Notes: generated by a model not told the origin, from the sequence alone. A stretch of 37,855 nucleotides of DNA from an uncultured Pseudomonadota bacterium (GCA_964462555.1 CAYWXY010000005.1:1-37855); one strand, 5' to 3'. Shown: positions 4,466-22,251, counted from the first letter of the stretch. Numbers and translations: made by a program.

Positions 4466-4492
4466 TCTTCGGCGGCCAGCGATAAATGTTGC
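4466..4492 (-). promoter_or_regulatory. Putative alternative-sigma (sigma28-like) promoter GCAACATT-N-GCCGAAGA
   Basis: Minus strand reads GCAACATTTATCGCTGGCCGCCGAAGA, with the same spacing as copies at 13963, 16351 and 16418. About 30 nt upstream of the protease start. Confidence 0.55.
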
Positions 4493-4509
4493 GTGGAAAA
4501 TTAGAAAGA

Positions 4510-4522
4510 TAAGTTATTGATA
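4510..4522. promoter_or_regulatory. IHF-consensus site
   Basis: TAAGTTATTGATA is an exact reverse-complement match to WATCAANNNNTTR, in an AT-rich divergent promoter region. Confidence 0.45.
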
Positions 4523-4572
4523 TTGTTATGAGTTGGTACTATAAGTGGCCCTGAAATGGTGAAAAAGGGGGA

Positions 4573-5571
4573 ATGATGAGACGGACACTGTCCTTAATTG
4601 TTGCATTATTAATCGTTGTGGTTGGCTCGAATGCCTTTGCGGGGGCGATCAAGATGGCCCTTATCGCGCCGGAGGGGTCGACCTGGATTAATGTCATGAA
4701 GGAAATGAGCGCTGAGCTCAAGTCGAAGACTGGTGGTCGTTGGCAGCTTCAGCTCTATCCGGGTGGCGTGTCGGGTGATGAAAAGGTGGTCATCAAGAAG
4801 ATGAAGATCGGCCAGCTCGATGCGGCTGGTTTTACGGGTGTCGGTCTGGGTGAAATTTACCCGGCGGTTCGTGTTCTGGAACTTCCCTTTCTCTTCAATA
4901 ATTCGAAAGAGGTCGATTACGTCGTTGGTAAACTGCTCCCTGATCTGAAGTCTGGTTTTATAGGTAAGGGTTTTCAGTTTCTCGGTTGGGCAGAGTCGGG
5001 TTTCGTTCATATCTTTTCGAACAAGGCGATCAAAAAACTTGGCGATATGAAGGGTGTCAAGATGTGGATGTGGCAGGGGGATCCTCTGGCCGAGAAGATG
5101 TTCGAGACGTTCAAGATTGTTCCAGTGCCGTTGCCGGTTCCGGATGTCTTGATGGCGCTTCAAACCAAGATGATCGATGCTGTCTATGCTCCGCCGCTGG
5201 CCGCGATTGCGATGCAGTGGTTTTCCAAAACGCGTTATATGAGTGATGCTAAGATGGTGAATGCCATCGGTGCGATTTTGATCACGAATCGAGCCTACAA
5301 CAAGATGACGCCAGCCGATAAGACAGTGTTGAAACAGCTATCGGAAAAATATACGAAGAAGTTGGTCCAGTTAACACGGAAGGATAATGAAAAATCTCTA
5401 GAGACACTTAAGGCCGCGGGAATTCAATTTGTGCCGATGGATGCTGCCAATCTCAAGGTCATCGAGGAAAAGAGTAAGACGGTCTGGACGGCGATGGTTG
5501 GAAAGCTTTATCCCCAGGCGCTTCTAGGTAAGGTCGTGAAATATCTTGCCGAATATCGCGGGAAAAATTAA
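4573..5571 (+). CDS. dctP: TRAP transporter substrate-binding protein DctP (TatP type)
   Basis: Signal peptide ending AFA. Motifs IKMALIAPEGSTW, YPGGVSGDE, LELPFLF and ALQTKMIDA. First gene of a P-Q-M operon. Confidence 0.9.
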   Translation: MMRRTLSLIVALLIVVVGSNAFAGAIKMALIAPEGSTWINVMKEMSAELKSKTGGRWQLQLYPGGVSGDEKVVIKKMKIGQLDAAGFTGVGLGEIYPAVRVLELPFLFNNSKEVDYVVGKLLPDLKSGFIGKGFQFLGWAESGFVHIFSNKAIKKLGDMKGVKMWMWQGDPLAEKMFETFKIVPVPLPVPDVLMALQTKMIDAVYAPPLAAIAMQWFSKTRYMSDAKMVNAIGAILITNRAYNKMTPADKTVLKQLSEKYTKKLVQLTRKDNEKSLETLKAAGIQFVPMDAANLKVIEEKSKTVWTAMVGKLYPQALLGKVVKYLAEYRGKN

Positions 5572-5574
5572 CGC

Positions 5575-6066
5575 ATGAATCTGTTGCTCAGAATTGAAAA
5601 GGCGATTGTTCGATTGAATAAGGTGGTGATGGTGTTGTCGCTTGCCACCATGATCATCCTCGGTTTTCTCCAGATTATTCTTAGAAATTTTTTCGATAGT
5701 GGTTTTTCTTGGGCCGATATTGTGGTTCGCAGTCTCGTTCTTTGGGTCGGTTTTACGGGTGCTGTTATCGCAACATCGTCAGGCCATCATATTGCGATCG
5801 GCGCGCTTCTCCGGTTTTTGCCTGAAGGGTGGAAACGTCGTGTCCATGTCGTGATTTCTCTGATTGTTTCGGTCATTTGTATCTTTCTAACGATTGCATC
5901 GGTTAAGTTTATCGGTTTTGAGATTGAGAGTGGGGCGGTTCTCTTTGGTTCCGTGCCACTTTGGGTTTCGGAATTGATTATTCCGATGACATTTGCCTTC
6001 CTGGCGTATCAATTTTTTGTCCACGCATTTTTGGAGCCAAAGGGTCTTGAAGAGGAGGGTGCATGA
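5575..6066 (+). CDS. dctQ: TRAP transporter small permease DctQ
   Basis: Four TM helices. Motifs QIILRN, LVLWVGFTGA and GHHI. Overlaps the dctM start. Confidence 0.9.
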   Translation: MNLLLRIEKAIVRLNKVVMVLSLATMIILGFLQIILRNFFDSGFSWADIVVRSLVLWVGFTGAVIATSSGHHIAIGALLRFLPEGWKRRVHVVISLIVSVICIFLTIASVKFIGFEIESGAVLFGSVPLWVSELIIPMTFAFLAYQFFVHAFLEPKGLEEEGA

Positions 6067-7331
6067 CACTCCTCTGGGTTGTTGCCCTTATTGCGATTGC
6101 CCTTTTGGGTGCGCCGCTCTTTTCCGTTTTCGGCGCGATCGGTCTATTAGCCTTTCATGCAGCAGATATCGACATGGTCGCCGTCATTATTGAGATGCAA
6201 CGAATGGCAGAGGCGCCAACGCTTGCGGCGATACCGCTCTTTACGTTTGCAGGCTATCTCTTGGCAGAGTCGAAGGCCCCCGAGCGCTTTATCCAGCTCT
6301 ATCGTTCCTGTTTTGGTTGGGTCCCGGGCGGTCTTGCGATTGTGACATTGGTGGCTTGTGCGTTTTTCACGGCCTTTACCGGCGCATCGGGCGTGACGAT
6401 TGTTGCGCTGGGCGGACTCCTCTATCCACTGTTACTTAAGGAAAAATATCCGGAACGATTTTCGCTGGGGCTGGTGACCGCCGGCGGAAGTCTCGGCGTT
6501 TTGTTTCTTCCAAGCCTGCCACTCATCCTTTATGGTCTTGTGGCATCGGTCAGTATCGACAAACTCTTTCTTGCCGGAATTGTTCCCGGCCTCCTAATCG
6601 TTTTACTGCTGTCGCTTTATTCTGCCTATGTTGGCCGGCATACGCATGCCGAACGTGAACCCTTTGCCTGGTCGAATGTTTTTTCGTCGATTAAGGGGGC
6701 TATCTGGGAAATTCCGCTACCGCTGATTATCCTTGTCGGCATTTATGGCGGCTTTGTGACGGTAACCGAGGCGGCCGTGATTATGGTTGTCTATGTCTTG
6801 ATCGTTGAGGTTTTGATCACTAAGGATATTCCTTTTGGTAAAAATCTGATGAAAGTAGCCGTTGACTCGATGCAAGTGGTGGGCGGCATCTTGATTATCC
6901 TGGGTGTGGCGCTTGGCGTAACAAGTTATCTGATCGATCAACAGGTGCCGATGAAGCTCTTCGAGTTTGTTCGGCAGTTTGTCTCCAACAAATATCTTTT
7001 CTTGATGATCCTAAATGTCTTTCTCTTGGTTGTTGGTTGTCTCATGGATATTTTTTCGGCAACGATCGTTGTGGTGCCGCTCATTGTTCCGGTTGCAATG
7101 GAGTTTGGGATCAACCCGATTCACTTGGGCATCATTTTTCTGACGAATCTGGAGATCGGTTATTCAACGCCGCCGGTCGGTCTCAACCTCTTCATTTCGA
7201 GCTTCCGGTTTCGGAAGCCGATCACTACATTATATAGTGCATCGGTGCCATTTCTGATTATTCGCCTTATCGCCTTGATATTAATCACTTATTTACCATT
7301 CCTAAGCCTTGCCCTCGTCAACCTCTTCTAA
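6063..7331 (+). CDS. dctM: TRAP transporter large permease DctM
   Basis: Highly hydrophobic 422 aa protein. Motifs AIPLFTFAG, GSLGVLFLPS and EIGYSTPPVGLNLF. Confidence 0.93.
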   Translation: MTLLWVVALIAIALLGAPLFSVFGAIGLLAFHAADIDMVAVIIEMQRMAEAPTLAAIPLFTFAGYLLAESKAPERFIQLYRSCFGWVPGGLAIVTLVACAFFTAFTGASGVTIVALGGLLYPLLLKEKYPERFSLGLVTAGGSLGVLFLPSLPLILYGLVASVSIDKLFLAGIVPGLLIVLLLSLYSAYVGRHTHAEREPFAWSNVFSSIKGAIWEIPLPLIILVGIYGGFVTVTEAAVIMVVYVLIVEVLITKDIPFGKNLMKVAVDSMQVVGGILIILGVALGVTSYLIDQQVPMKLFEFVRQFVSNKYLFLMILNVFLLVVGCLMDIFSATIVVVPLIVPVAMEFGINPIHLGIIFLTNLEIGYSTPPVGLNLFISSFRFRKPITTLYSASVPFLIIRLIALILITYLPFLSLALVNLF

Positions 7332-7369
7332 GCACCGGGTGCTTAAGAGGGTACAAGCACCCGGTGCTT
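7330..7369. repeat. REP-like inverted pair of 15-nt palindromes
   Basis: AAGCACCGGGTGCTT (7330-7344) and AAGCACCCGGTGCTT (7355-7369) are exact reverse complements, and each is itself palindromic. Confidence 0.75.
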
Positions 7370-7378
7370 ACGACGGCT

Positions 7379-7391
7379 TAACATGTTGATA
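7379..7391. promoter_or_regulatory. IHF-consensus site
   Basis: TAACATGTTGATA matches YAANNNNTTGATW exactly. Confidence 0.45.
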
Positions 7392-7434
7392 TTATTTGCT
7401 TAATTAAAAAAGTGAAGAAAGTGTTTCCGGGGAC

Positions 7435-7463
7435 GCAACTTCAGGGTGCTAACCTACCGATAA
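7435..7463 (+). promoter_or_regulatory. Putative sigma28-like promoter GCAACTTC-N-ACCGATAA
   Basis: Same upstream box as the other copies. The downstream box is 1 mismatch from GCCGATAA. The spacer is 2 nt longer than in the other four copies. Confidence 0.5.
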
Positions 7464-7469
7464 TATAAA

Positions 7470-7552
7470 CAGAAATAGGCTCTCACTTACTAATGAGGGC
7501 TGACTTACCCCCTTCGGAAGGTCCGTTGCAATTGTGCGACGGACCTTTTTTT
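7470..7552 (+). ncRNA. Candidate small regulatory RNA (~80 nt)
   Basis: Promoter motif directly upstream, 7-bp hairpin GCTCTCA/TGAGGGC (7479-7500), unpaired C-rich linker, then a strong terminator. No ORF. The 5' end is estimated. Confidence 0.45.
7518..7552 (+). terminator. Rho-independent terminator
   Basis: 13-bp stem AAGGTCCGTTGCA/TGCGACGGACCTT (one G-U pair), ATTG loop, T-run on the + strand only. Confidence 0.85.
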
Positions 7553-7557
7553 ATCCT

Positions 7558-7607
7558 ACCTGGTAAAACCTGGTAAAACCTTACCTGGTAACTTGTTCAC
7601 CAGGTAA
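7558..7607. repeat. Cluster of ACCTGGTAA repeats
   Basis: Direct copies at 7558, 7568 and 7583, plus ACCAGGTAA at 7599 (reverse complement TTACCTGGT). Confidence 0.65.
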
Positions 7608-7718
7608 CAAAGCTTTAATTACAATTAGTTAGCAACTAACTGATATAAGCACCAGACTTTGAAAAGTCAGTGATTATTCCAGACTCGCAATGACTGTCTT
7701 GTTTGTCTCGTTCTGCAG

Positions 7719-8948
7719 TTAGAATGAGTAGACGAGGTTGGTGAAGATGACGCTGGCGCCGGAGGTGCCGTTTGTTACGTAGCGTGTTCTCAGGTTTTCA
7801 TATTGAAGACCGACGTAGAACGGTTTCCAGGGTTTGAACTTAACGTTGGCAAAGATGATCTGGTTGCGATCAACGTTACCGGCGGCAATCTTGGATGTTT
7901 GACCATCATCGATACCAAAACCAACATTGGTTTCAAACCACTTGCACCATTCACTAGATATCTGTCCCCAACCGGCGAGATTCTTGGCGTCGGTTGTTGT
8001 TCCAGCGTAGGTCAGAAAATTTCCCATGTTTTGACCATAATGAATTTCACCACTCAGTTTGAAAAACTTGTGAAACGGAATATTTAGACTCCCTGCAAAG
8101 CCGTAGACCTTGCGATACGATGCACCGTTTCGTCGATCGGTACCTGCAGCACCCGAAGCTGCAATAATGAAGTCACCATATTTCATCTTACGATTGTATT
8201 GGAGAAGCAACTCGCCATACGGGTAGCCGGAATCGACGCCGCCGTTCCAGAGATCATCGGTATTTCCAGGGTTGTCAATGCTGGCCGCAATTTTGAAATT
8301 ATTAACATCGCCCTTTAAGGCTTTGTATTCGAATCGGAGTTGCGGACGGCGGAAACCCATGTTTCCCTGAAACCAGACGTTATTTCCGAGACTGAGCGAA
8401 CGTGTATTAAGTGGTGAAAAAATATCCCAGTTTTGTCCGGCAAGGACGAGCCAGCGATCCCCCCAAATTGACATCGAAAGGAGACGAATACGCGGCATGG
8501 GTGATGTTCCATACGTGGTGCTATTGAGAATGTTAACAAAATCCATTTCAAAGACGCCACCCATCCACGTGTTTGTTCCCACTTGCGTACCGGTCCATTT
8601 GAGACCGATGCGGCTGTTTTGTGGTGTGGCACTGAACCATGCGTTGTCCGTTCCGAAGACGGCCTTGTTGGCAACGCGTGACTGTGCAGCAGAGGAGTTG
8701 ATGCCGCCATAAAGCTGGGTCTTGTGTGTGCCATAGAAAAACTGGGCGGCGACGAAGCCGTAGAAATCGAGCGGATACTTTGTGCCGATGGCGCTCTGCT
8801 TCTCTTCTTTAACCTCGGTCTTAAGTTCTTCGACCTGTTGTTCGAGTGCTTGGATTCGTTCATCGACATCGCTCTTGGCCCAGCTGCTTGCTGGGATGAC
8901 AAGGGCGATAGCAACGAGCAGCGTCAGCAGGATGTTCAATTTTTTCAT
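7719..8948 (-). CDS. DcaP-like trimeric outer-membrane porin with N-terminal coiled coil
   Basis: Start at ATG 8948 (AAGGAG RBS). Signal peptide ending SWA. Coiled coil ERIQALEQQVEELK. Motifs NSRIGL, PRIR, LAGQNW and RRPQLRF. C-terminal YSF. Confidence 0.75.
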   Translation of the reverse strand: MKKLNILLTLLVAIALVIPASSWAKSDVDERIQALEQQVEELKTEVKEEKQSAIGTKYPLDFYGFVAAQFFYGTHKTQLYGGINSSAAQSRVANKAVFGTDNAWFSATPQNSRIGLKWTGTQVGTNTWMGGVFEMDFVNILNSTTYGTSPMPRIRLLSMSIWGDRWLVLAGQNWDIFSPLNTRSLSLGNNVWFQGNMGFRRPQLRFEYKALKGDVNNFKIAASIDNPGNTDDLWNGGVDSGYPYGELLLQYNRKMKYGDFIIAASGAAGTDRRNGASYRKVYGFAGSLNIPFHKFFKLSGEIHYGQNMGNFLTYAGTTTDAKNLAGWGQISSEWCKWFETNVGFGIDDGQTSKIAAGNVDRNQIIFANVKFKPWKPFYVGLQYENLRTRYVTNGTSGASVIFTNLVYSF

Positions 8949-9136
8949 TAATCTCTCCTTTATTGTGGTTAGTGTTGGGGGTGGTGTAACAAGGTTGGGG
9001 GGGCTCAGCAAGGAGAATCCAGAAAATTATAACTCTCTAATATGAGTAGTGAATTTTGGCGCTCAATCAATCTCCAACTGTCGATCTTCTCGAGTTGGAT
9101 CTTGTCTTTTGATAAGGCTGTGATAGCCTGATTTTC

Positions 9137-9847
9137 ATGAGAAAGTTGTTTTTCCAAATCGTGGTTTTGGTCCTAGTTGTGGTGCCATTTGTTGGAATTG
9201 CGGAGGAGAAGGAATCGATCTACTTTGTTAAAGAACGTGAAAAGATGATCAAGTATCTTCGTGCCGCCGGAATCAACGACCAATTTGTTATTGATGCGAT
9301 GAGTCGGGTGCGCCGTCAGGAGTTTGTTCCTAAACCAAAGGATGCCTACGAAGAAAGAAGTTTCAAGTTAGGTTCGTGGGCCGTCGCGGCTTCTCCTTAT
9401 GTAACGGCGATGCGGCTCAATTCACTTCGACTGAGACCTGGCGAAAAGGTTCTGGAGATTGGAACCGAGACTGGTTACCAGGCGGCGTTGATGTCGAAGA
9501 TCGGTGGCAATGTCTACTCGATTGAACTCGACCCAAAGCGTGCGGCCGAGGCCAAGAAGGTTTTGGAGAAGCTTGGGTATAATAAGATTCACCTTCGTGC
9601 GGGCGACGGTTTTGACGGTTGGCAAGAGGCGGCGCCCTTTGATGCGATTATTTTCGCCTGTACACCGGATGACTTTCCCCCGCGTCTCGTCGAACAGCTG
9701 AAAGAGGGGGGACGAATGATTCTCTCTCTTGGAAAACTTTATGGTCCTCAGACACTCATTTTTGCCTATAAGGAAAATGGCGAAATAAAGACTCGCCCTC
9801 TCGCCGATATTAAGGCGCCCCCCATGCGCGGTAAGATCGCGAAGTAG
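9137..9847 (+). CDS. pcm: Protein-L-isoaspartate O-methyltransferase homolog with signal peptide and degenerate motifs
   Basis: Motifs RRQEFVP, KVLEIGTETGYQAA, GDGFDGWQEAAPFDAII and LVEQLKEGGRM. N-terminal hydrophobic leader. Confidence 0.8.
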   Translation: MRKLFFQIVVLVLVVVPFVGIAEEKESIYFVKEREKMIKYLRAAGINDQFVIDAMSRVRRQEFVPKPKDAYEERSFKLGSWAVAASPYVTAMRLNSLRLRPGEKVLEIGTETGYQAALMSKIGGNVYSIELDPKRAAEAKKVLEKLGYNKIHLRAGDGFDGWQEAAPFDAIIFACTPDDFPPRLVEQLKEGGRMILSLGKLYGPQTLIFAYKENGEIKTRPLADIKAPPMRGKIAK

Positions 9848-9943
9848 TTTCTTCTTAGAAACACTATACTTACAAGCCAGAATATCTCACTTGATTATTA
9901 TCCGACATTATATTATACCACCGGCCTGACAGCGGGAGGTTAT

Positions 9944-12442
9944 ATGAAGCTCGGTTTTGAAGCCACTTCACCAATTGGTAAGCTCTATCACGATATCAAA
10001 CAAAAATGGATCGATTCGGGAAGGTCGGAGACCGATTTTTTCAAAGAGATCGACCAGGGGTGTGTCGGCAATATCGATCTTTATCCCACGGCGACGAATC
10101 AGAAGGGAGTTGTCGATCAGTGTGAGGTCTTCGAGATTGGCTATCGTTTCAAGGATCTTCACTCCGTCTTGGCCAAACATGGTTATCGACTACCATTTGG
10201 ATTTAATGATTATGACCCGAAGACGACGATTGATGCCAAACTTCAAAAAGAGCTTCAAAAGGTGGCGGCAAGTTTCAAGGCGCAGGTGATCGCCGATGGA
10301 ATGAAAGAGGGGTCCAAGGAGTACCGCTTTGCTGTGGCAAAAAAGATTTTCGGTTGGGCGGATAAACATCTCGATTTTAAACAGGATTGTAGAACCGAGT
10401 TTGTTGATTGGAAGGCTCTTGCTCAGTCGTGTGGCCGATGTACCGAAATTGCGAGCATTGTCTACTTTCTCTGCCAAGAGGCGGGACTCGATCCTACATT
10501 CATGTTAGTTGACAACCATGAACCAACCGTAAAGAACTATAATGCCTACTCTGCCTTTTCATGGGATCTGAATCGCCCAACGCTTGAAACTCATGTCTTT
10601 GTTGCTATTCCATATCCGACGAAAGATAAGCTCTTTCACCTTGATACAACGGGTAGTGTTAAATTTGGGCACTTTTTTTCAGAGGCAAAAAAGATGACAC
10701 CGAGTCAGTTTGCACTTATGTCGTATCGAAACCACATGATTCACTCTCATCAGAACTATGGAGAGGGTGAGCCGTTTGACCATGCAGCACTTGAGAGGAT
10801 GCTAGACTTGGAGCCAACAGAGGTTTTTGTCCCATTCCAGAAGGCACTTTATGAGTTGAATAACTATTTGTCGTCTGATGCTGTCGGGGACATCTCAGCC
10901 GCCAGTATAGAAAAGGTCTTTGGTCATCCAACACTTGATGGTGCTCCCAATCATCGTTTAGCAGTCGACATCCTCTTGGTCGTTTTGGCCTTCTTTGGTC
11001 AAAGTTCGGCAGCTCTTAATCAAGCGTTTAAACAATTGCACACGGATCTTCATACGCTGGAGTTGGAAAATTCTAAGGCGGCCACGGCATATTCCCTCTA
11101 TGCAGCCGAATTGGTTGTGAGAATATCAGCGATCTTGGCTGAAAATATTGCCATGTCTCAAGAGGTGAAGGAAGGGCTCTCGCAGCTTCATCAGATGGCA
11201 CTGCACTTTTTATCGCCGGCCATTCGTTGGAATCCGAAAGAGATGAGGGCTCATTGCTATATCAATCATCTCAACATTTCTCCCAAAGAGCTGCACGAAT
11301 TTTATTCTGAGCTAAGTGAAGAAGAGCCCAATAATCAACTGGCCAGGTATTTTAAAATTATGAATGGATTAGTGCATGCAGGGAATCTCAATGAGGAAGA
11401 GGCTGCTCCGGTTATAGAGGAGATTGAAGGTGATATTGCTAAACTCAAAGATCCAAATGCAGCGCATGTTTCGTTTATTAATGCACAGATCAATTTTTTC
11501 AAAAAGAATTTGGATGCGGTGAAGGTCCATTTAGATGCGATCAAGGATCAGGAGTTTGGTTCGGTCTCTGCAGGTTACCACGCCTTGATGTTTTTCTATT
11601 GCATAGCTACAGAGAACTATTCTTTGGCCAAAGAGACAGTTAACAAATTGTTCGATGAAGAGCCCCATAATGGGCGACTCTTTTTTGCGCGTTTTATGAT
11701 GCACAACCTTCGGGAGATTCGACTGAATCTTGGGAGCGTTGGGGCTGCGGGTAATGTTGGCGAAAGTGGTCAGATGGATCTCTTTGTCTGGATGGCTGAT
11801 CGGATTGCGGAGAAAGAAGATCTTGAGTCTCAAGTAGTCGTCATCTATTCGCTTCTCTATCTCATAAGTCTGGACCCCTCTTCGGAACATAAGCATCAGG
11901 AGAATATCTATAAAAAGATTTCGGGCAAGATGACGGAAGAAGCCCGGATGGCCGTCAATTATCTTCTCTTCAGACTCTCTCACAATATGTTCGAAAAAGA
12001 GATTAAGATTGATGACACGTCGGTGTCAGATGCACACTTCTACCTCGAAGAGAGCGCTAAAATTTTGGGTGAGCGGGAAAAGTATCCCGGTTACATCCAA
12101 CTTTGTCTCCAGGCTTTTCGTACCGCTATTGAGGCGAGTGATGCGGCACTCGCCAAAGAGATGATCGCTATTCTTGCTCACGCGGAGGGTATAGCGACGC
12201 TCTTTTACGACCATGTCATGAAACAGGTTACTGAACCCCTCTTTGGAGATGACAATCTGACCACGAAAGAGATTCAAAGAGTCATTCTTTTTTCACGCGC
12301 CATATTGTCAGAGAAAGGCGCCGCCTCTAAGGAGCTTCTTAATCTCAAGGGATTTGCGGGTGTCATGGAGGGGGCGATCGAAAAAGTCGATAAGGCCTTC
12401 CATTCAAAGTGGAAGCAAATCATCATTGAATTGAGAAAGTAG
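9944..12442 (+). CDS. Transglutaminase-like (Cys-His-Asp) domain protein with long helical/TPR-like C-terminus
   Basis: GRCTEIASIVYFLCQEAGL, THVFVAI and FHLDTT match the spacing of a transglutaminase-like core. GGGAGG RBS. No signal peptide. Confidence 0.65.
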   Translation: MKLGFEATSPIGKLYHDIKQKWIDSGRSETDFFKEIDQGCVGNIDLYPTATNQKGVVDQCEVFEIGYRFKDLHSVLAKHGYRLPFGFNDYDPKTTIDAKLQKELQKVAASFKAQVIADGMKEGSKEYRFAVAKKIFGWADKHLDFKQDCRTEFVDWKALAQSCGRCTEIASIVYFLCQEAGLDPTFMLVDNHEPTVKNYNAYSAFSWDLNRPTLETHVFVAIPYPTKDKLFHLDTTGSVKFGHFFSEAKKMTPSQFALMSYRNHMIHSHQNYGEGEPFDHAALERMLDLEPTEVFVPFQKALYELNNYLSSDAVGDISAASIEKVFGHPTLDGAPNHRLAVDILLVVLAFFGQSSAALNQAFKQLHTDLHTLELENSKAATAYSLYAAELVVRISAILAENIAMSQEVKEGLSQLHQMALHFLSPAIRWNPKEMRAHCYINHLNISPKELHEFYSELSEEEPNNQLARYFKIMNGLVHAGNLNEEEAAPVIEEIEGDIAKLKDPNAAHVSFINAQINFFKKNLDAVKVHLDAIKDQEFGSVSAGYHALMFFYCIATENYSLAKETVNKLFDEEPHNGRLFFARFMMHNLREIRLNLGSVGAAGNVGESGQMDLFVWMADRIAEKEDLESQVVVIYSLLYLISLDPSSEHKHQENIYKKISGKMTEEARMAVNYLLFRLSHNMFEKEIKIDDTSVSDAHFYLEESAKILGEREKYPGYIQLCLQAFRTAIEASDAALAKEMIAILAHAEGIATLFYDHVMKQVTEPLFGDDNLTTKEIQRVILFSRAILSEKGAASKELLNLKGFAGVMEGAIEKVDKAFHSKWKQIIIELRK

Positions 12443-12472
12443 ACAAAGGGGTCTGACCCCGGTGTCTACTTT
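12436..12472. terminator. Hairpin between convergent genes (probable bidirectional terminator) containing a GGGGTCTGACCCC palindrome
   Basis: Arms AAAGTAGACA/TGTCTACTTT enclose GGGGTC-T-GACCCC. Confidence 0.6.
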
Positions 12473-13845
12473 TAGGCGCGGAGAGCTTGTTTGGCGAGGG
12501 TTTTGCCAACCTTCCAGGCGCCACCCGGAAACTTGTGGCAGAGCTTCATGACATCCTCAAAGGCATTCAGAAAATAATCGACATCCTCTTTCGTAATAAC
12601 AAGTGGTGGTAGAAGCTTCACGACGGTTGTGTTGTGACCGGCGACCTGTGTCAAGATACGATGATCGGAAAGCAGAGGGACAACAACCATCTGTCCGAAG
12701 AGTCCGTTGTTGATCTTGTGGATCATGTTCCAACCGACTTTGAGCATTTTCGATGTCGGTTGCATAAATTCGACGCCGATCATGAGACCTTTGCCCCGAA
12801 CGTCCCCCATCATTTCATAACGACTTTGAAGTTCTTTGAGGCCTGCCAGAATCTCATCCCCGCGAAGACGTGCGTTTTCGATCAGGTTTTCCTCTTCGAG
12901 GATCTCAATCGATGCCAAACCTGCTGTCATCGCCAGGGTGTTTCGTCCAAAGGTGTTGGAGTGGACGACACAACGCTCCATTCCATCATATACCTTATTA
13001 TATACATCTTTGTTATAGCAGATGACGCCGATCGGGATAAAACCGCCCGATAGGGCCTTGGCGACGGTGACGATATCGGGCTTTAGACCAAAATGTTCAT
13101 GGGCAAACCAGTGACCGGTTCGGCCCATGCCCGATTGAACTTCATCGGAGATCGTGAGCACGTCATGTTCTTTGCAAAGCTGTTCGGCCTTTTCAAGAAA
13201 ACCGGCCGGGGGGATGTTGACCCCTTTTCCCTGGATCGGTTCATAGATGAAGGCGGCAACGTTGCCACGTTTTAGCTCTGTTTCTAGTGATGCGATGTCG
13301 CCCATTTTGATCGGAATACAATCGGGGAGTAGCGGTGTGAAGCCTCGGCGGAATTCCTTGCCGCCATTACATGAGAGCGAGCCATTCGTCAGGCCGTGAA
13401 AGGCATGGTCGAGATAGAGGATCTTTGATCGACCGGTGGCACACTTGGCGAACTTGAGTGCCCCTTCAACGGCCTCAGTGCCGGAGTTGGTAAAGAAAAC
13501 GGTATCGAGTCCGCTGTGGAGCTTTTCTAAAAGTTTTTCGGCCAAGAGGCCTGCGAGAAGTGGTGCGTCCATCTGAATCATATTTGGATAGTCGGCATCG
13601 ATGGTCTCTTTGAGGGTCTCCTTCATCTTGGGGTGATTCCGGCCGATATTAAAGACGCCGTAACCAGAAAGAAAATCAAGATACCGATTGTCATCAGCGT
13701 CATAGAGATAGGGGCCTTTGGCACGGACATAGTTCTTGTCGAATCCAATGGTTCTAAGGACCTTGACCAGTTGTGGGTTGACATATTTTGCGAAGAGGTC
13801 GTGTTGTCGTCCCGAATTTTCGTCCAAAATCTTATTAATGTCCAT
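12472..13845 (-). CDS. hpnO: Class III PLP aminotransferase, HpnO-like (aminobacteriohopanetriol synthesis)
   Basis: Motifs YLDFLSGYGVFNIGRNHP, NSGTEAVEGA, DEVQSGMGRTG and AKALSGG. HpnO-type termini (VKVLRTIGFD; RCVVHSNTF; WKVGKTL). Confidence 0.75.
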   Translation of the reverse strand: MDINKILDENSGRQHDLFAKYVNPQLVKVLRTIGFDKNYVRAKGPYLYDADDNRYLDFLSGYGVFNIGRNHPKMKETLKETIDADYPNMIQMDAPLLAGLLAEKLLEKLHSGLDTVFFTNSGTEAVEGALKFAKCATGRSKILYLDHAFHGLTNGSLSCNGGKEFRRGFTPLLPDCIPIKMGDIASLETELKRGNVAAFIYEPIQGKGVNIPPAGFLEKAEQLCKEHDVLTISDEVQSGMGRTGHWFAHEHFGLKPDIVTVAKALSGGFIPIGVICYNKDVYNKVYDGMERCVVHSNTFGRNTLAMTAGLASIEILEEENLIENARLRGDEILAGLKELQSRYEMMGDVRGKGLMIGVEFMQPTSKMLKVGWNMIHKINNGLFGQMVVVPLLSDHRILTQVAGHNTTVVKLLPPLVITKEDVDYFLNAFEDVMKLCHKFPGGAWKVGKTLAKQALRA

Positions 13846-13962
13846 AGCTTACTCCTTCTACCGTTCCCATAGTCCTTTATTTTCCGTTTGGCAAGCCCCG
13901 ATTTCCCCCGTGCTATGCGGTTTACAGGAGGAAACAGGGGGAAACGAATTGTTAGAAAATGC

Positions 13963-13989
13963 GCAACTTTTTGAGAATGCGATCGATAA
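13963..13989 (+). promoter_or_regulatory. Putative sigma28-like promoter GCAACTTT-N-ATCGATAA
   Basis: GCAACTTTTTGAGAATGCGATCGATAA, 50 nt upstream of the 14040 start. Confidence 0.55.
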
Positions 13990-14039
13990 GCTATCAAATG
14001 GGGGAGGCAATTCTATGATTGAAGTAAAGGAGCATCTAT

Positions 14040-16301
14040 ATGACCGACCCAAAGATCCAAAGCCTCTCATCCAAAGTTTGCCAAACCTTGACGAGCAATG
14101 CGGAGAGCCAGAAGGAATGTCAAGGTCTCGCTGGCCTGCACCTTGGTGACTCAGATCGCACTTTTTGTAAGCCACCCGAGAATAAAACATCCTCAGATCT
14201 GATTCGTTGTTTCCGGAATAATATGGATAGCTGGGCATCGACTTACGATATTTCGGTGGGCGATGGTGACGAGGTGATCCGTATTCCCAATCGTGTTTAT
14301 TGGAAATTCTTTGATACGGTTAAGGGTAGTGTCCCACGGCTTCCAGATCTGAACAAGGTCTATGATGAGGTTGTCGTTCTCTATTTTAAGCAGCAGTTCA
14401 TTGTGAAGACATATGCCAATCTCGCCGAGATTGGATTTAAGAACACACCCCTAACGGCCAAGACAAGGGAGGCCGGTGACGGGGATGAGGCTGAGATAAC
14501 GGTCCATCGGGTCGAAGAGAAGGCCGTCGTCATGTGGAAGACGCTGCAGGATATAATTGCCAAGAATGCGAATAAAGAAGAAGAGAATAAGGTTTATGTC
14601 ACGTGGCCAGGGCCTGACAAAGATAAGCCCATAACTGTCCTACTCTCAAAGATTACAAGCGATATGAGTTATGCTGAGATGGTTGAGATGTCGAAGGCCC
14701 AGTTTCTCTTTATGAAGAGAGCGGTTATTAAAATAGTTGAGAGCGAGGAGAAGGAGGCGCGAGCCGCCGGGAATGTTGCTTTAGCGAATGATTTCAAGGG
14801 AAGGGCTGAAGAACTGAAGAGTCAATCATTTGAATTTCCTTATAGTGAGGCTGAACTGGCTGAAAGACTGCACATGGGTATCCAGGAAGTGGCCGATGCC
14901 TACTTTTATATCATCCAAGACAATATGCCGCTCAAGAATCCAGAGAAGAGCAGTGTGGAAAAGAAGGCCCTAGTCCTTGATGTCTCTGGCGAAAAGTACA
15001 GTGTGGGTAAAGAGACAAAACTTTTGGCAAAGAGCTATTGGGTGACGGGTGGGAAGCCGACGAGTCTTGATGAGGTGAAGGCCGTGGGCGATGCTGTTAT
15101 AAATTTGACGCGACGGACAGGGATGAAGAATAAGGTAAAGGTTCCCCCCGAAATTGGAGACAAGCCCAAGACTCTCTCCGGAAGCATTTCTGGCGAATAC
15201 AGTACCGCTGGTTCAATGGCGCCAAACCTATTTGCCGACTTGAAAATTGCGATGGTTGGGAATCCTAAGGAAGGTTTTTTTCTTCAAGGAAGAATTTCGG
15301 CCCTATATCTTGATCAACATCCTGGAACGGTTCATCCCGATGGTCCGGTTTCAACGGCTGATGATGTAGCGAACCCCAAGGAGTCGCTCCAGATTATCTA
15401 TGCATATCTCATGGGACAATATGTTTTTGATAACAAGGTCAGGCTTCACGGTAAGGCCGGCGTTGTTGATCCGCGAAATCGAACGACACCGGGAATCGCC
15501 TTTGATCGTTTGCACCAGGGAAATGGTGAAGGGCAATATCAGGTTGGTCGAATTACGGGAGCTACTCTGGGTGTCGATATTCCCCTTCAATCAGACGCCG
15601 AGAAGCCAATTTCGATCGGCGTAGAGACAAGCTTGGGCGCTAGCGGAAATCCCATGATCTATAAGGAGAATGTTCCGGGTGATGAAAAGCCGAATACGTA
15701 TTGGTTTGATAAGGATATGGGCGGGGGTCGATTTGTAAACACGGGTCGTGTGCGACTCTTTAAGAATCCCCACGATGAATATGATAGCTGGCTCGAGTCG
15801 ATGAATTTGTCGTTGGGTTGGGAGGTTAAAAGAGGCAGAGGCGATGAGCCAACAAAGAGCAAATTTGGAATTATTGGGGAGGGACTGTTTAATGTAATTC
15901 CGGAGAAGCAATTGCTTCAGGTGGGTGCCGGTTTTTACTTCGATTATGGAGATGAGATTCTGGATGGTGGCGTTAGCGGACTTGTTGGTCTGAACCCCTG
16001 GAAGTGGCTCAAGCTTAAACAGTATGTCACGTATGGATCGAGTGGCCGTACGTATAATTTTGGTCGCGTCGACGGGCCCAAGGGACCATTTGATCATTCG
16101 GTTTCTGTTAAAATCAAAAGTCTTTCCTGGGCGACGCAGGCAACGATCGGCCCCTTCGAGGGTATACCGGTTCTCGATAGTTTCGAATTCTTTCTCCAAT
16201 ATATGGGTGAAAAAGGGATGGAGGCCGAAGAGGGACACTCTTCTGCCCTCAGAGGAAAGGCCGTTAATAGCTTTGGAGTGGGCGCCACAGCGACATTTTA
16301 G
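14040..16301 (+). CDS. Leaderless protein: 4-Cys N-terminal domain + helical region + C-terminal porin-like beta-barrel (paralog A)
   Basis: AAGGAG RBS with an in-frame TAA at 14025. The C-terminal half has alternating amphipathic strands and ends FGVGATATF. Clear homology to 16495-18701. Confidence 0.75.
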   Translation: MTDPKIQSLSSKVCQTLTSNAESQKECQGLAGLHLGDSDRTFCKPPENKTSSDLIRCFRNNMDSWASTYDISVGDGDEVIRIPNRVYWKFFDTVKGSVPRLPDLNKVYDEVVVLYFKQQFIVKTYANLAEIGFKNTPLTAKTREAGDGDEAEITVHRVEEKAVVMWKTLQDIIAKNANKEEENKVYVTWPGPDKDKPITVLLSKITSDMSYAEMVEMSKAQFLFMKRAVIKIVESEEKEARAAGNVALANDFKGRAEELKSQSFEFPYSEAELAERLHMGIQEVADAYFYIIQDNMPLKNPEKSSVEKKALVLDVSGEKYSVGKETKLLAKSYWVTGGKPTSLDEVKAVGDAVINLTRRTGMKNKVKVPPEIGDKPKTLSGSISGEYSTAGSMAPNLFADLKIAMVGNPKEGFFLQGRISALYLDQHPGTVHPDGPVSTADDVANPKESLQIIYAYLMGQYVFDNKVRLHGKAGVVDPRNRTTPGIAFDRLHQGNGEGQYQVGRITGATLGVDIPLQSDAEKPISIGVETSLGASGNPMIYKENVPGDEKPNTYWFDKDMGGGRFVNTGRVRLFKNPHDEYDSWLESMNLSLGWEVKRGRGDEPTKSKFGIIGEGLFNVIPEKQLLQVGAGFYFDYGDEILDGGVSGLVGLNPWKWLKLKQYVTYGSSGRTYNFGRVDGPKGPFDHSVSVKIKSLSWATQATIGPFEGIPVLDSFEFFLQYMGEKGMEAEEGHSSALRGKAVNSFGVGATATF

Positions 16302-16350
16302 TTAATAAATTCAACTAGTTATAGTTTTTTGTCATTTATTGAAAAAAATA

Positions 16351-16377
16351 GCAACTTTTTTGGAAGAGAAGCGACAA
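16351..16377 (+). promoter_or_regulatory. Putative sigma28-like promoter (distal) GCAACTTT-N-AGCGACAA
   Basis: GCAACTTTTTTGGAAGAGAAGCGACAA, same spacing as the other copies. Confidence 0.45.
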
Positions 16378-16417
16378 CGGAGCAGATGATCAAGAGGTCC
16401 AAAACGAAAAAAAGTTA

Positions 16418-16444
16418 GCAACTTTTCCGGGTGAGGGCCGACAG
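16418..16444 (+). promoter_or_regulatory. Putative sigma28-like promoter (proximal) GCAACTTT-N-GCCGACAG
   Basis: GCAACTTTTCCGGGTGAGGGCCGACAG, 50 nt upstream of the 16495 start. This is the same distance as for paralog A. Confidence 0.55.
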
Positions 16445-16494
16445 AACAGTGTGGGGAGCGAAACGATAAACATCTTTCAAAAAGGAGTTCATGT

Positions 16495-18701
16495 ATGACC
16501 GACCCCAAAATCCAAAATGTTAGCGCTCAGATCTGTCAATCAATGACAAGTGGTAAGACTGCTGTACAGGAGCAATGTCAGGAGAGAGCGGAAAGAGCGT
16601 TGAATGATACGGGTAGAACCTTTTGCACAGCCGCCGATAATGAGACTGACGCGAAGATGGTTCAATGTTTTCAAAAGGAAACCGATAGTTGGGTAGGAAC
16701 GACCAATGTGACAGAGCCCGATGGATCTGGCGGAAGAGTCACGATTGCTTCGTTCTCAAACGATGTCCTCTGGAAATATATGTCATTTATTAATCGGAAG
16801 GTTCCACGTCTTCCCGATATTAATCAGGTCTATGAGGATGTCATCGGCAAATTTGTTGAGGATAGATCGGTTTTATATGCCTATACCGATTTGGCGAAGA
16901 TGGGGCTTGATGGTACCGCGTTGACGGTTAAGGAGAATGGCACATCGAAGAGTGTCACTGATCCGCAAGAGCAGGCCGTTTTTATGTGGGCCCGCCTCCA
17001 AAGTGTCATTAAGAAAAACGAGAATCCCGAAACAAAAGACGAGGACAAGGTTACGGTTAAATGGAGCTATGAAGTAGACGGTGAGCCGGTGGATACAGAG
17101 GTTACACTTGGTCGGATCACTGGTGATATGGATTACAAAGAGATCACCGATATGTCCAAGGCCTATATTGTTTATATGCAAAAAGAGATCATCGGACTTT
17201 TGACAGCTGGAAAGGAGCGGCACGATGCAGCCGGTGAGACGGCTGACGCTCAAGGCTTACAGACCAAGATCACAGCCCTTTCTAATTGGGATTACAAGTT
17301 CCCTTACACTGAAGCTGAGATGGTCGAGATGCTCGAGCCAAAATTGGAAGAGATTCGTTTGGCCTATTACTACATGATGCAGTCTAAGATGCCGAATGAA
17401 GAGGGCTCGGATAAACAAAAACAGCTGACCATCGATCCAAAGGGTACTAAATATGGTGAGGATGAGAAGGATCTTGCCAAGAGTTATGTTGTAACAGGTG
17501 GCAAGCCGAAATCACTCAGAGATATGATGGACGCTAATGCCGCTCTGCATACTCTGATTCGCACTACTGCTAAAGATGGTGGTGTTGAAGTTCCAGCCGA
17601 GCCAGGCGAAGGTAGAAAAGTTGTTTCTGGTGAACTCGGTGCCGAGATTGGAAGCGCTGGTTCGCTGGCATCGAATATCTTTGGTGATTTAAACATCGCT
17701 ATTCTTGAGAAGAATGGTTGGACGCTGGGTGCCAGAATTACGGCCCTCTATCTCGATCCGCACGCTGGTTATGTCCATCCAGAAGGTCCCGTCTCAGATG
17801 CCGATGATATTAGCAATCCTGACCCATCGCTTCAGATCCTTTATATGTATCTGAATGCGTCTTATACATTTAAAAAGAGCGGTATCAAGCTTTACGGTAA
17901 GCCGGCACGATGGACAACCGAAACCGGACAACACCATGGATGGCCTTTGATAGACTTCACCATGGAAATGGTGAGGGTGGTCAGATCATCGGACGTGACA
18001 CGGGTGTTCGAGTTGGTGTCGATATTCCGCTGGGTGGCAGTAAGGGTAAGAACCATATCGCGGTTGAGGCCTCGGTTGGTGCGCATGGAAATCCGATGTT
18101 AGCACCGAAGGCCTACATGTTTGATGAAGACAAGGGTAAAGGACAGTTCGTTCATACCGGACTCGTGAAAGTTTATAAGCCAGCACCGAAGGATGGATTT
18201 GATCATATCGTTGACGCCTACAATGCCAAGTTGGGTTGGGTCGTTACCGGTGATGGTATCTATCATGTAAATGGTATTCTTGAGGGTAAATTCAACGTCA
18301 TTCCAAAGAGCCGTATCCTTCAGATCGGTGCGGGTGTCCATCTCGGTTATGGTGATGGCTCCTTTGATTGGGGTGTGGGTGGTATTACGACCATTAATCC
18401 TCTTAAGTGGTTGGAGTTCCATGGTTTGGTTGCCTACGGGACGAGTTATCAAACGCTTAATATGGGTACGGTGGATACACCCAATGGTCCTCAGGATCTC
18501 TCGATCAATAGTGGTGAAAAGGTATTGAGTTTTGGCCTACAGGGCTACGTCAAACCACTTCATATGTTCAAGGGTTTTGAAACCCTGAAACTGGGTATTG
18601 TTTATGAGGCTATCGGTGGTCAAAAGGCCGAAGAGCATAAGGCGTCAGCGACAGACGAATTCACACACGGTGTCATGGGTGTTGTTGGATACGAATTCTA
18701 A
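16495..18701 (+). pseudogene. Paralog B of 14040-16301, split by a 1-nt deletion near 17901 (pseudogene or assembly error; ~735 aa if restored)
   Basis: ORFs 16495-18102 and 17910-18701 align consecutively to paralog A. A has GGT AAG GCC GGC, while B has GGTAAG-CCGGC. Ends VMGVVGYEF. Confidence 0.8.
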
Positions 18702-21876: not shown

Positions 21877-22251
21877 ATGAATGTTCTTAAAAAAATAGTT
21901 TTTTCAGTAGGTTTGCTAACCTTGGCCGCCTTTATGGTGGCTGGCTCATCTGGGCCAAAAGACGTCGGCCCCCAGTTTAAGGGGCATGAAAAGATGGCGA
22001 TTGAGCTTAAGAATGTCTGGCTTCAGGCGATGGCCACGGGAAACCTGGGAGAATGGGTGTCGTGCATGGTCAAGTTTGAGGGTCAGGTTGACTCATCCCA
22101 GATCGATCAGCTTAAGGTGGCCGGAATGAAGGTGCGAACCCGTCTCAACACGATCGTGACGGGAAAGATTCGGGTTGAGAATCTGCCCTTTGTAACGGAG
22201 ATCGAGAGTGTTCAAGCCGTTGAGGGTGGTAAAAAGCTGTCGTTTAAATAG
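21877..22251 (+). CDS. Secreted stand-alone subtilase propeptide-like protein
   Basis: Signal-like N-terminus and GAGG RBS. The C-terminal ~60 aa align by eye with the prodomain of the downstream S8 protease. Confidence 0.65.
   Translation: MNVLKKIVFSVGLLTLAAFMVAGSSGPKDVGPQFKGHEKMAIELKNVWLQAMATGNLGEWVSCMVKFEGQVDSSQIDQLKVAGMKVRTRLNTIVTGKIRVENLPFVTEIESVQAVEGGKKLSFK

Follow-up and report, generated by a model that had tools for sequence, protein, structure and literature searches.

Which factor reads the two-block motif GCAAC...CGA that recurs in a stretch of DNA from an uncultured Pseudomonadota bacterium (GCA_964462555.1 CAYWXY010000005.1:1-37855), and which genes does it control? The whole stretch, 37,855 nucleotides (nt) in length, is referred to here as the window. 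A first-pass annotation had described five copies of the motif in it and ascribed them to a divergent relative of sigma-28 that drives envelope proteins lacking signal peptides. Our analysis indicates that the motif is almost certainly a genuine promoter class shared by the whole phylum, and that it is probably read, judging from the sequence comparisons set out below, by a divergent sigma-28-like factor belonging to a gene cluster for the type III secretion system (T3SS).

Exact matches to GCAACWTT-N12-16-CGA were found in the window at 4492-4469 on the minus strand and at 13963, 16351 and 16418 on the plus strand, four matches where 0.20 are expected and a number reached by none of 100 shuffles. 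In each of these copies the first G lies 21 nt from the C of CGA, while in the copy with its G at 7435 and its C at 7458 the distance is 23 nt. The coordinates and spacings reported for the five copies in the first-pass annotation were all borne out, and the downstream boxes quoted there (GCCGAAGA, ACCGATAA, ATCGATAA, AGCGACAA and GCCGACAG) read as stated. Its claim that every copy aims at a gene or a candidate small RNA (sRNA) also stood, the targets being a trypsin/PDZ gene, the gene at 14040-16301, the gene at 16495 (behind two copies) and a transcript without an open reading frame (ORF). Bit scores from a weight matrix derived from the genome set three strong plus-strand copies apart: 13963..13990 with 30.1 bits, 16351..16378, the upstream one of a tandem pair, with 29.2 bits, and 16418..16445, located 51 nt 5' of a start codon, with 30.7 bits. 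The minus-strand copy at 4466..4492, GCAACATTT-N10-GCCGAAGA, is a weaker match of 15.3 bits, under the 16-bit cut. The plus-strand copy at 7435..7464, GCAACTTCAGGG...ACCGATAAT, belongs to a subclass with two extra spacer bases (+2) and scores below 12 bits because the matrix seed required [AT][AT]T after GCAAC, where this copy reads TTC; it was rescued by comparison, as its ortholog in genome G031 has an identical core and spacing.

The motif in the genome and across the phylum

The genome that contains the window comprises 2.51 Mb in 227 contigs and is 90% complete; a loose regular expression retrieved about 100 near-identical sites across it. The consensus of 71 strict seeds reads aAAAAa..ta GCAACTTTT N10 tGcCGATAAta, and nothing outside it is conserved. 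The -10 box is conserved over eight positions, (G)CCGATAA, with CGA followed by T (84%), A (98%) and A (80%). The genome was scanned with a two-block weight matrix at a cut-off of >16 bits, using the reversed, uncomplemented sequence as a control. At the main spacing the scan yielded 111 sites against 1 in the control; a spacing of +1 gave 27 against 1, and a spacing of +2 gave 17 against 0. A spacing of +3 gave 9 sites (3 once duplicates were removed) and a spacing of -1 gave 1, against 0 and 2 in the control. We regard about 155 sites, at spacings of 0 to +2, as credible in this genome. A literature search on GCAAC together with CCGATAA gave nothing relevant, judged by title.

The sites are placed as promoters would be. 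Of 158 sites, 122 lie outside ORF calls (binomial p = 3e-103). Most of the 36 'inside' sites are found either right at the 5' end of an ORF that was called too long or in an ORF of small size, in many cases shorter than 165 amino acids (aa) and often on the opposite strand. A same-strand start codon follows within 150 nt at 102 of the 122 intergenic sites and within 300 nt at 109; counted from the end of the -10 box, it lies a median of 39 nt away (quartiles 27-58 nt). Enrichment upstream of genes in a single orientation had been put forward as a check of the promoter reading; in the weight-matrix scan, with crude ORF calls, the motif proved to be enriched, intergenic and orientation-specific. 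Two conserved blocks around a variable spacer could also make up a bipartite operator, a site for a transcription factor or another DNA-binding protein with no promoter involved. We consider this extremely unlikely, since the site is asymmetric and strictly oriented, its distance to the start codon is narrow, its spacer tolerates +1 and +2 but not -1 and -2, its second box matches a known -10 element exactly, and the motif also stands 5' of a small RNA that ends in a terminator.

Among the 122 first downstream proteins there are just 12 paralog groups, of two to three members each, and therefore neither a duplicated gene family nor a mobile repeat is what carries the motif. A dispersed repeat or miniature inverted-repeat transposable element was considered as a candidate and rejected on this count and on that of the unconserved flanks.

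A sample of 61 genomes from the window's phylum was searched for the strict form GCAACWTT-N13-CGATAA. It was present in all 61, with 1-52 copies each, compared with 2 copies in total in the reversed control. In four genomes with only 1-6 strict copies, a relaxed form, GCAAC-N14-19-CGATA, occurred 49-88 times against 5-16 in the control, and the six genomes of the same order as the window have 9-30 strict copies each. The strict motif was absent from two Thermoleophilia genomes, which have ordinary WhiG-like sigma factors, and from a genome labelled Rickettsiales. The literature search, judged by titles and the starts of abstracts, turned up no account of this promoter and none of the group's biology. 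The motif thus offers a handle, obtained from sequence only, on a T3SS-tied regulon: a high-information promoter with about 155 sites, present in 61 of 61 genomes of a phylum that has no cultured member.

The sigma-28-like factor and its type III secretion cluster

Only five matches to the sigma-70 family were found in the genome: RpoD (613 aa), which has the canonical TRERIRQIE helix in region 4.2; an RpoH-like protein; a FliA/WhiG-like protein of 287 aa; an extracytoplasmic function (ECF) sigma factor of 190 aa on contig C14; and a fragment of 44 aa at the end of contig C109. The top NCBIfam families for the FliA/WhiG-like protein are WhiG (NF004935, 1e-37) and FliA_WhiG (TIGR02479, 9.5e-37, covering profile positions 1-219 of 224), and its nearest solved relatives are WhiG and FliA chains. 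In the phylum sample a homolog was detected in 61 of 61 genomes at E <= 1e-30, along with SctV in 60 of 61 (55 over the cut-off), while flagellin was detected in 9 and not in the other 52.

A preprint on the E. coli sigma-28 initiation complex describes K208 and R220 as touching the -35 element, and contacts to the -10 element that include R95 and R98 (10.1101/2020.01.02.893370). In an alignment to E. coli FliA from 6PMI, and in E. coli numbering, the sigma factor studied here retains D81, R84 and R91 in region 2.4/3.0 and differs in region 4.2 by K208 to E, E218 to K, R220 to W, V221 to T and Q223 to R. The -35 recognition helix thus reads KSWTSR, compared with ESRVSQ in the solved sigma-28 proteins. 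The close homologs of the protein are 52-70% identical to it, and the helix LSKSW(T/V)SRLH is present in 54 of 54 that were aligned; two distant sigma factors from Thermoleophilia have ISQMHVSRLI in its place. In the six genomes whose helix is the KSWVSR variant, the strict motif occurs 9-34 times, an ordinary count. A FliA/WhiG-like factor with an altered region 4.2, the kind of reader that the first-pass annotation had anticipated, is therefore encoded exactly once in the genome, with changed -35 contact residues.

The consensus of E. coli sigma-28 promoters is TAAAGTTT-N11-GCCGATAA. Its -10 element, GCCGATAA, is matched by the genome-wide consensus tGcCGATAAta, and the -35 box GCAACTTT sits in the positions of TAAAGTTT, so that the sigma-28 register is kept; the -35 sequence itself is GCAAC(TTT), not the TAAAG(TTT) of sigma-28. 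This genome-wide picture upholds the earlier reading of the downstream boxes as resembling the FliA/WhiG -10 element and of the upstream box as something other than TAAA. The factor would represent a natural case in which the -35 specificity of sigma-28 has been reset at residues which, in E. coli, touch the -35 element, with -10 reading kept.

The gene for this factor lies in a cluster of non-flagellar T3SS genes on contig C41 (3641-16016, minus strand). The order along that strand is SctJ, a +2-spaced motif (14831), p139, p125, the sigma gene, p169, FliG-like, SctL, SctN, FliJ-like, an unassigned ORF, FliM-like, SctQ/FliN, FliO, SctR, a further unassigned ORF and SctT. Elsewhere in the genome, SctV on contig C26 scores 784.7 bits, above the cut-off of 692.25, with FlhA below its own cut-off, and SctU on contig C3, behind a +2-spaced motif (C3:13985), scores 358.6 bits at a cut-off of 358. 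SctR exceeds its cut-off, as do both SctN and FliI, whereas SctT, SctJ, SctL and SctQ are best matches that stay below theirs. The core export apparatus of SctV, U, R, T, N, L, Q and J is thus detected in the genome. Three genes have a secretin domain, and the one that was looked into is GspD in a type II secretion system cluster. No flagellin (PF00669) or rod (PF00460) gene was detected in the 90%-complete genome, and FlgM (PF04316) had no match in it at E <= 1. A search for T3SS or flagellar export genes had been proposed with the original description of the motif, and its outcome is that the type III export apparatus is present, with flagellin, rod and FlgM genes undetected.

Comparison of 56 loci from relatives, with counts limited by flanks of 3 kb, recovered the sigma gene at every one of them; the FliG-like gene was present at 53, p169 at 41, SctJ at 36 and p139, which matches no NCBIfam family, at 20. 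Of 45 relatives, 18 have a same-strand motif within 3 kb upstream of the sigma gene, and its spacing is +2 in every case. This conserved position before the sigma operon fits a promoter by which the sigma factor feeds its own operon, and from it we infer positive autoregulation.

ECF promoters combine a -35 box of the AAC type with a -10 box of the CG type. By this general consensus GCAAC-N16-CGA has the shape of an ECF promoter, a point that weighs against a sigma-28-like reader. A promoter of a group 4 ECF sigma factor, heading a regulon of the envelope-stress type, would also agree with the presence of ECF genes, one complete (on C14) and one a fragment at a contig end (on C109), and with envelope proteins in the regulon such as OmpA, Omp85-like proteins and proteases. 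We nevertheless judge it improbable, on the box itself and on what the C14 gene shows. The eight-position (G)CCGATAA is a sigma-28 box rather than a short CGT-type one. Homologs of the C14 ECF factor (E <= 1e-10) occur in 25 of the 61 phylum genomes and in none of the six same-order genomes, which have 9-30 strict copies of the motif. The C14 ECF gene, starting at about 16618, has no motif directly upstream, the sites on C14 being at 6061, 12183 and 19221, whereas the operon with the sigma-28-like gene does have a motif at its head.

Several other observations count against the sigma-28-like factor as the reader of the motif, or limit how the scan may be read. The factor scores 126.9 bits against NCBIfam FliA_WhiG, for which the curated cut-off is 189.6. 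R94, R95 and R98 are changed in it, which speaks against a fully canonical reading of the -10 element. Helix and motif showed no covariation, both being near-invariant. An outgroup genome of 9.2 Mb labelled Schekmanbacteria (G061, the genome of L059) encodes a sigma factor that is 43% identical and has the same helix, and no enrichment of the motif was found there, with 0 strict and 2 relaxed matches in the 9.2 Mb; this result argues against a simple link from helix to motif. The G061 sigma factor differs in region 3.0, its gene lies near SctJ-like and FliG-like genes, and the promoter in that genome may differ in its -10 box. Within the genome of the window, no motif lies directly 5' of SctV, which follows secA. 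The weight matrix is biased by its seed expression ([AT][AT]T after GCAAC), and the ORF calls are crude: ORFs were chosen greedily by length, down to 60 aa, and together cover 92% of the genome.

Two side observations concern this cluster and its promoters. The promoter subclass with two extra spacer bases has a G-rich start of the spacer (GCAACTT[CT]nGGG) and stands at the head of the sigma operon, of SctU and of the small RNA, at C41:14831 (-), C3:13985 (+) and window position 7435 (+), respectively; it might represent a tier of the regulon that is earlier or is tuned differently. FliG-, FliM-, FliO- and FliJ-like genes stand beside SctJ, L, N, Q, R and T, with flagellin and rod genes undetected, and the T3SS may be an injectisome whose type is early-branching or intermediate. 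The system bears on the origin of injectisomes from flagella, as a flagellar sigma factor, and possibly a secreted anti-sigma factor, appear to have travelled with the export apparatus.

Regulon content and the candidate anti-sigma factor p125

The first-pass annotation had suggested that genes behind the motif should be enriched in orphans without signal peptides. A Pfam scan at E <= 1e-5 covered 119 of the 122 first downstream genes, and 50 genes from the first 20 kb of contigs C1, C2, C4 and C6, with dnaA, rnpA, yidC and groEL included, served as background; the four background stretches contain only one motif site. No Pfam family was assigned to 89 of the 119 regulon genes, compared with 17 of the 50 background genes (Fisher p = 1.4e-6), and two window genes outside the Pfam batches have no family either. 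When composition was compared with that of the other called proteins from 100 aa upwards (1,934 in number), leader-like N-termini were found in about 13% of regulon proteins against 33% (Fisher p = 4e-6). Both parts of the suggestion thus agree with the data. Regulon proteins are also longer (median 455 aa against 300 aa) and poorer in cysteine (0.7% against 1.3%), their N-termini have more Pro and less Leu, Phe, Trp and Glu, and many of the orphans are very long, at 1,000-1,994 aa. Such a composition bias is expected of a set rich in type III substrates. Whether most of the leaderless orphan products are in fact T3SS substrates is, from these sequence properties, an evenly balanced question, and the predatory or host-associated lifestyle mooted in the first-pass annotation is conjectural. 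The roughly 90 Pfam-less proteins behind the motif provide a candidate list for new effector folds.

Members with an assignable family include SctU and two FHA/YscD-like proteins; a lytic transglycosylase (SLT) and a protein with Chlamydia-PMP repeats; repeat proteins of the DUF4116, HEAT and thioredoxin types; trypsin-like, subtilisin-like and Met-zincin peptidases; and histidine-kinase-like ATPases, a GGDEF protein, a DnaJ-PilZ protein and a sigma-54 activator. It weighs against a purely leaderless, exported set that about 13% of the proteins are leader-like and that OmpA, Omp85-like, PAP2 and regulator genes are present. The label 'envelope proteins' used in the first-pass annotation holds for some members and is too narrow for the whole, which takes in apparatus genes, regulators, signal-peptide proteins and at least one small RNA.

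These contents also bear on whether the motif is simply a general housekeeping promoter read by RpoD. A high frequency, about 155 sites in 2.5 Mb and phylum-wide, would suit such a promoter, as would a GATAAT in the -10 box that is like TATAAT and an upstream A-tract that is like an UP element. We hold it to be very unlikely: the 119 first genes are skewed to orphans and T3SS parts, with no ribosomal gene among them and other core machinery found only behind a few weak sites (a DEAD helicase, NrdR and QueG), and the stretches of the 50 background genes, for all their dnaA, rnpA, yidC and groEL, have a single site. In addition, the information content of the motif is well beyond that of housekeeping promoters, GCAAC is unlike TTGACA, and region 4.2 of RpoD is canonical.

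An observation of a different kind was made in 15-18 of the regulon leaders, which contain GCGGGC located 10-18 nt 3' of the -10 box; examples follow the sites C41:2264 (+), C174:3604 (-), C206:981 (+) and C3:34372 (+). In many minimum-energy folds this element is paired with bases at the start codon or immediately beyond it, the ribosome-binding site being enclosed by the pairing, and the leaders that have it show a mean fold z of -1.24, compared with -0.08 for 30 other regulon leaders. The predicted pairing may act as a translational lock or as a 5' stabiliser.

The ORF directly 5' of the sigma gene encodes p125, a protein of 125 aa. By BLAST it was conserved at 0 of 56 loci, and it has no FlgM Pfam match and no sequence relative in the PDB. 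In eight relatives an ORF of 111-143 aa with a polar N-terminal half occupies the same place, and most positional counterparts of p125 have a C-terminal half that is weakly alignable. Structure prediction of p125 together with the sigma factor gave a median ipSAE of 0.68, compared with 0.02 for the best of three controls, and placed residues 77-119, in the C-terminal half, across sigma regions 2, 3 and 4. The three runs share at least 62% of contacts, and the pLDDT of the partner is at least 52. The ipSAE mark applied is reached by 116 of 157 solved complexes and by 2 of 215 mismatched pairs, counts that hold roughly here, where our own alignments were used. The pass of p125 may be partly a matter of likeness, because the sigma side resembles solved sigma-28/FlgM complexes. 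On these models p125 is predicted to bind the sigma factor. By analogy with FlgM, it may be exported by the T3SS and hold the sigma factor inactive until then; as an identification of p125, that of a secreted anti-sigma factor is tentative, and we would sooner bet against it than for it.

Taken together, we propose the following explanation. As a promoter, the motif would serve an alternative sigma factor from the sigma-28 (FliA/WhiG) family, which is encoded in a non-flagellar T3SS cluster and conserved with that cluster across an uncultured phylum. This factor would keep the -10 reading of sigma-28 (GCCGATAA) and its register, with the helix of region 4.2 remodelled for GCAAC(TTT). It would drive about 155 promoters, among them those of T3SS apparatus operons, including its own, and of at least one small RNA, and with them about 100 unrelated, mostly orphan, long, cysteine-poor and leaderless proteins that would be the best candidates for T3SS substrates. 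The fast-evolving p125 would bind the factor and, as FlgM does, leave it inactive until p125 has been exported. The full scheme, in which the flagellar checkpoint has been re-wired in an injectisome such that secretion triggers effector synthesis through a sigma-28 descendant and an exported FlgM-like p125, is a possibility to which we give rather less than even weight. If it is true, the promoter would read out the whole secretome of an uncultured phylum whose members probably depend on a host or on prey, including leaderless proteins with C-terminal parts like outer-membrane barrels that might insert in the membrane of a target cell.

Window genes, the small RNA and known systems

The first gene behind the copy at 4492 is P0003 (2834..4435, minus strand), which encodes a trypsin-like peptidase with a PDZ domain, 533 aa in length, from an ATG at 4435 that follows GGGAGAA. 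Its trypsin and PDZ domains form an HtrA-like architecture, preceded by an N-terminal extension of 140 aa with no hydrophobic leader. The copy at 13963 precedes P0001 (14040..16301, plus strand), a leaderless orphan of 753 aa with AAGGAG 6 nt before its ATG. The tandem pair of copies precedes a paralog of P0001 (16495..18701, plus strand) with 40% identity over 482 aa. This paralog is split in two frames near 17880-17910: one piece spans 16495-17904 and the other 17865-18653, and the read-through match contains two TAA. The split is either a frameshift or an assembly error.

P0001 and its paralog both have a beta-rich C-terminal part and end in Phe, and the gene at 7719-9011, an ordinary signal-peptide gene resembling those of outer-membrane proteins, has the same aromatic end after a beta-rich region. 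The look-alikes of the P0001 family found with a protein language model are the outer-membrane barrel families YgjJ, Treponema Tpr and DUF5777, all below the tool's recognition mark. A search of a set of 5.8 billion proteins returned only P0001 itself; it was found in none of 60 other genomes of the phylum, and in its own genome as the gene and the two paralog pieces. AlphaFold2 prediction from the single sequence gave a mean pLDDT of 31.5, too low for use. The first-pass annotation had described the proteins directly downstream as extracytoplasmic in type and devoid of a signal peptide. The second part stands for three N-termini, which have no hydrophobic leader, and the first agrees with the HtrA-like architecture of the peptidase, while the assignment to a beta-barrel type is weak. 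The genes at 18753-21449, 21877-22251 and 22301-24436 have ordinary leaders, and membership in the regulon is not required for them.

The copy at 7435 precedes a candidate small RNA of about 85 nt (7470..7555, plus strand; ends inferred), with a T-run at about 7553 and no ORF. It is predicted to fold into a 5' hairpin, a C-rich single-stranded stretch and a terminator hairpin of 15 bp followed by the T-run; the fold has a z of -5.14, and none of 200 shuffles was equally stable. In G031, a genome of the same order, positions 1501-1609 of L140 contain the +2-spaced promoter, the C-rich stretch and the terminator, the last with compensatory changes. Among 19 other relatives, 18 gave no match at this sensitivity, and one (G021) matched in the promoter part only. 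No Rfam family was found in the window at the gathering threshold. Regulon leaders were not enriched in 7-mers complementary to the C-rich stretch (10 of 120, compared with 130 of 1829). Just 3' of the terminator, at 7560-7600, lie the direct repeats cctggtaaaac cctggtaaaac c ttacctggtaac. The window also contains an ordinary TRAP transporter operon (DctP, DctQ and DctM; 4573-7331), divergent from the promoter at 4492, and near it a component of the TAXI/TAtT type (383-1249).

Among characterised systems, one of the closest is FliA/FlgM of E. coli and Salmonella (6PMI/6PMJ, 1RP3), which has the nearest sigma family, the -10 box GCCGATAA and the same register of boxes, and in which, as here, the sigma gene lies among type III export genes; the small, partly disordered neighbour that is predicted here to bind the sigma factor would add a further likeness. 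FliA/FlgM differs from the present system in that here the -35 box is GCAAC, the positions of K208 and R220 are remodelled and no flagellin, rod or FlgM genes were found in the genome; the export machine scores as SctV/SctU/SctJ and not as FlhA/FliF, and the regulon is about ten times larger and mostly made up of orphans.

A broad sigma-28 regulon has a precedent in Bdellovibrio bacteriovorus, where FliA acts globally as a regulator of the attack phase: TTAAG-N16-CCGATA is reported from 92 of 140 promoters of that phase, and the targets beyond the flagellum include proteases, surface proteins, many uncharacterised proteins and small RNAs (PMC3627812). The likeness lies in the sigma-28-type motif and in the control of proteases, surface proteins, unknowns and small RNAs. 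Bdellovibrio keeps the canonical -35 box and a flagellum, whereas here the -35 box is re-specified, the T3SS is injectisome-like and flagellin went undetected in 52 of the 61 genomes.

Chlamydia trachomatis keeps sigma-28 without flagella and, reportedly, only for hctB and tsp (PMC12282069). It is likewise a non-flagellated bacterium with sigma-28 and a non-flagellar T3SS, and it has a developmental cycle. The present system is set apart by its about 155 promoters, its new -35 box and a motif before the operon of the sigma factor itself.

In Bordetella, the anti-sigma factor BtrA, which acts on the ECF sigma factor BtrS, is reportedly exported by the injectisome (PMC10732220). The shared idea is that a secretion machine turns on the regulon it belongs to by exporting an anti-sigma factor, as p125 export would do here; BtrS is an ECF factor, while the sigma factor here is sigma-28-like. 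The present system joins the themes of Bdellovibrio, Chlamydia and Bordetella and adds to them a re-specified -35 box.

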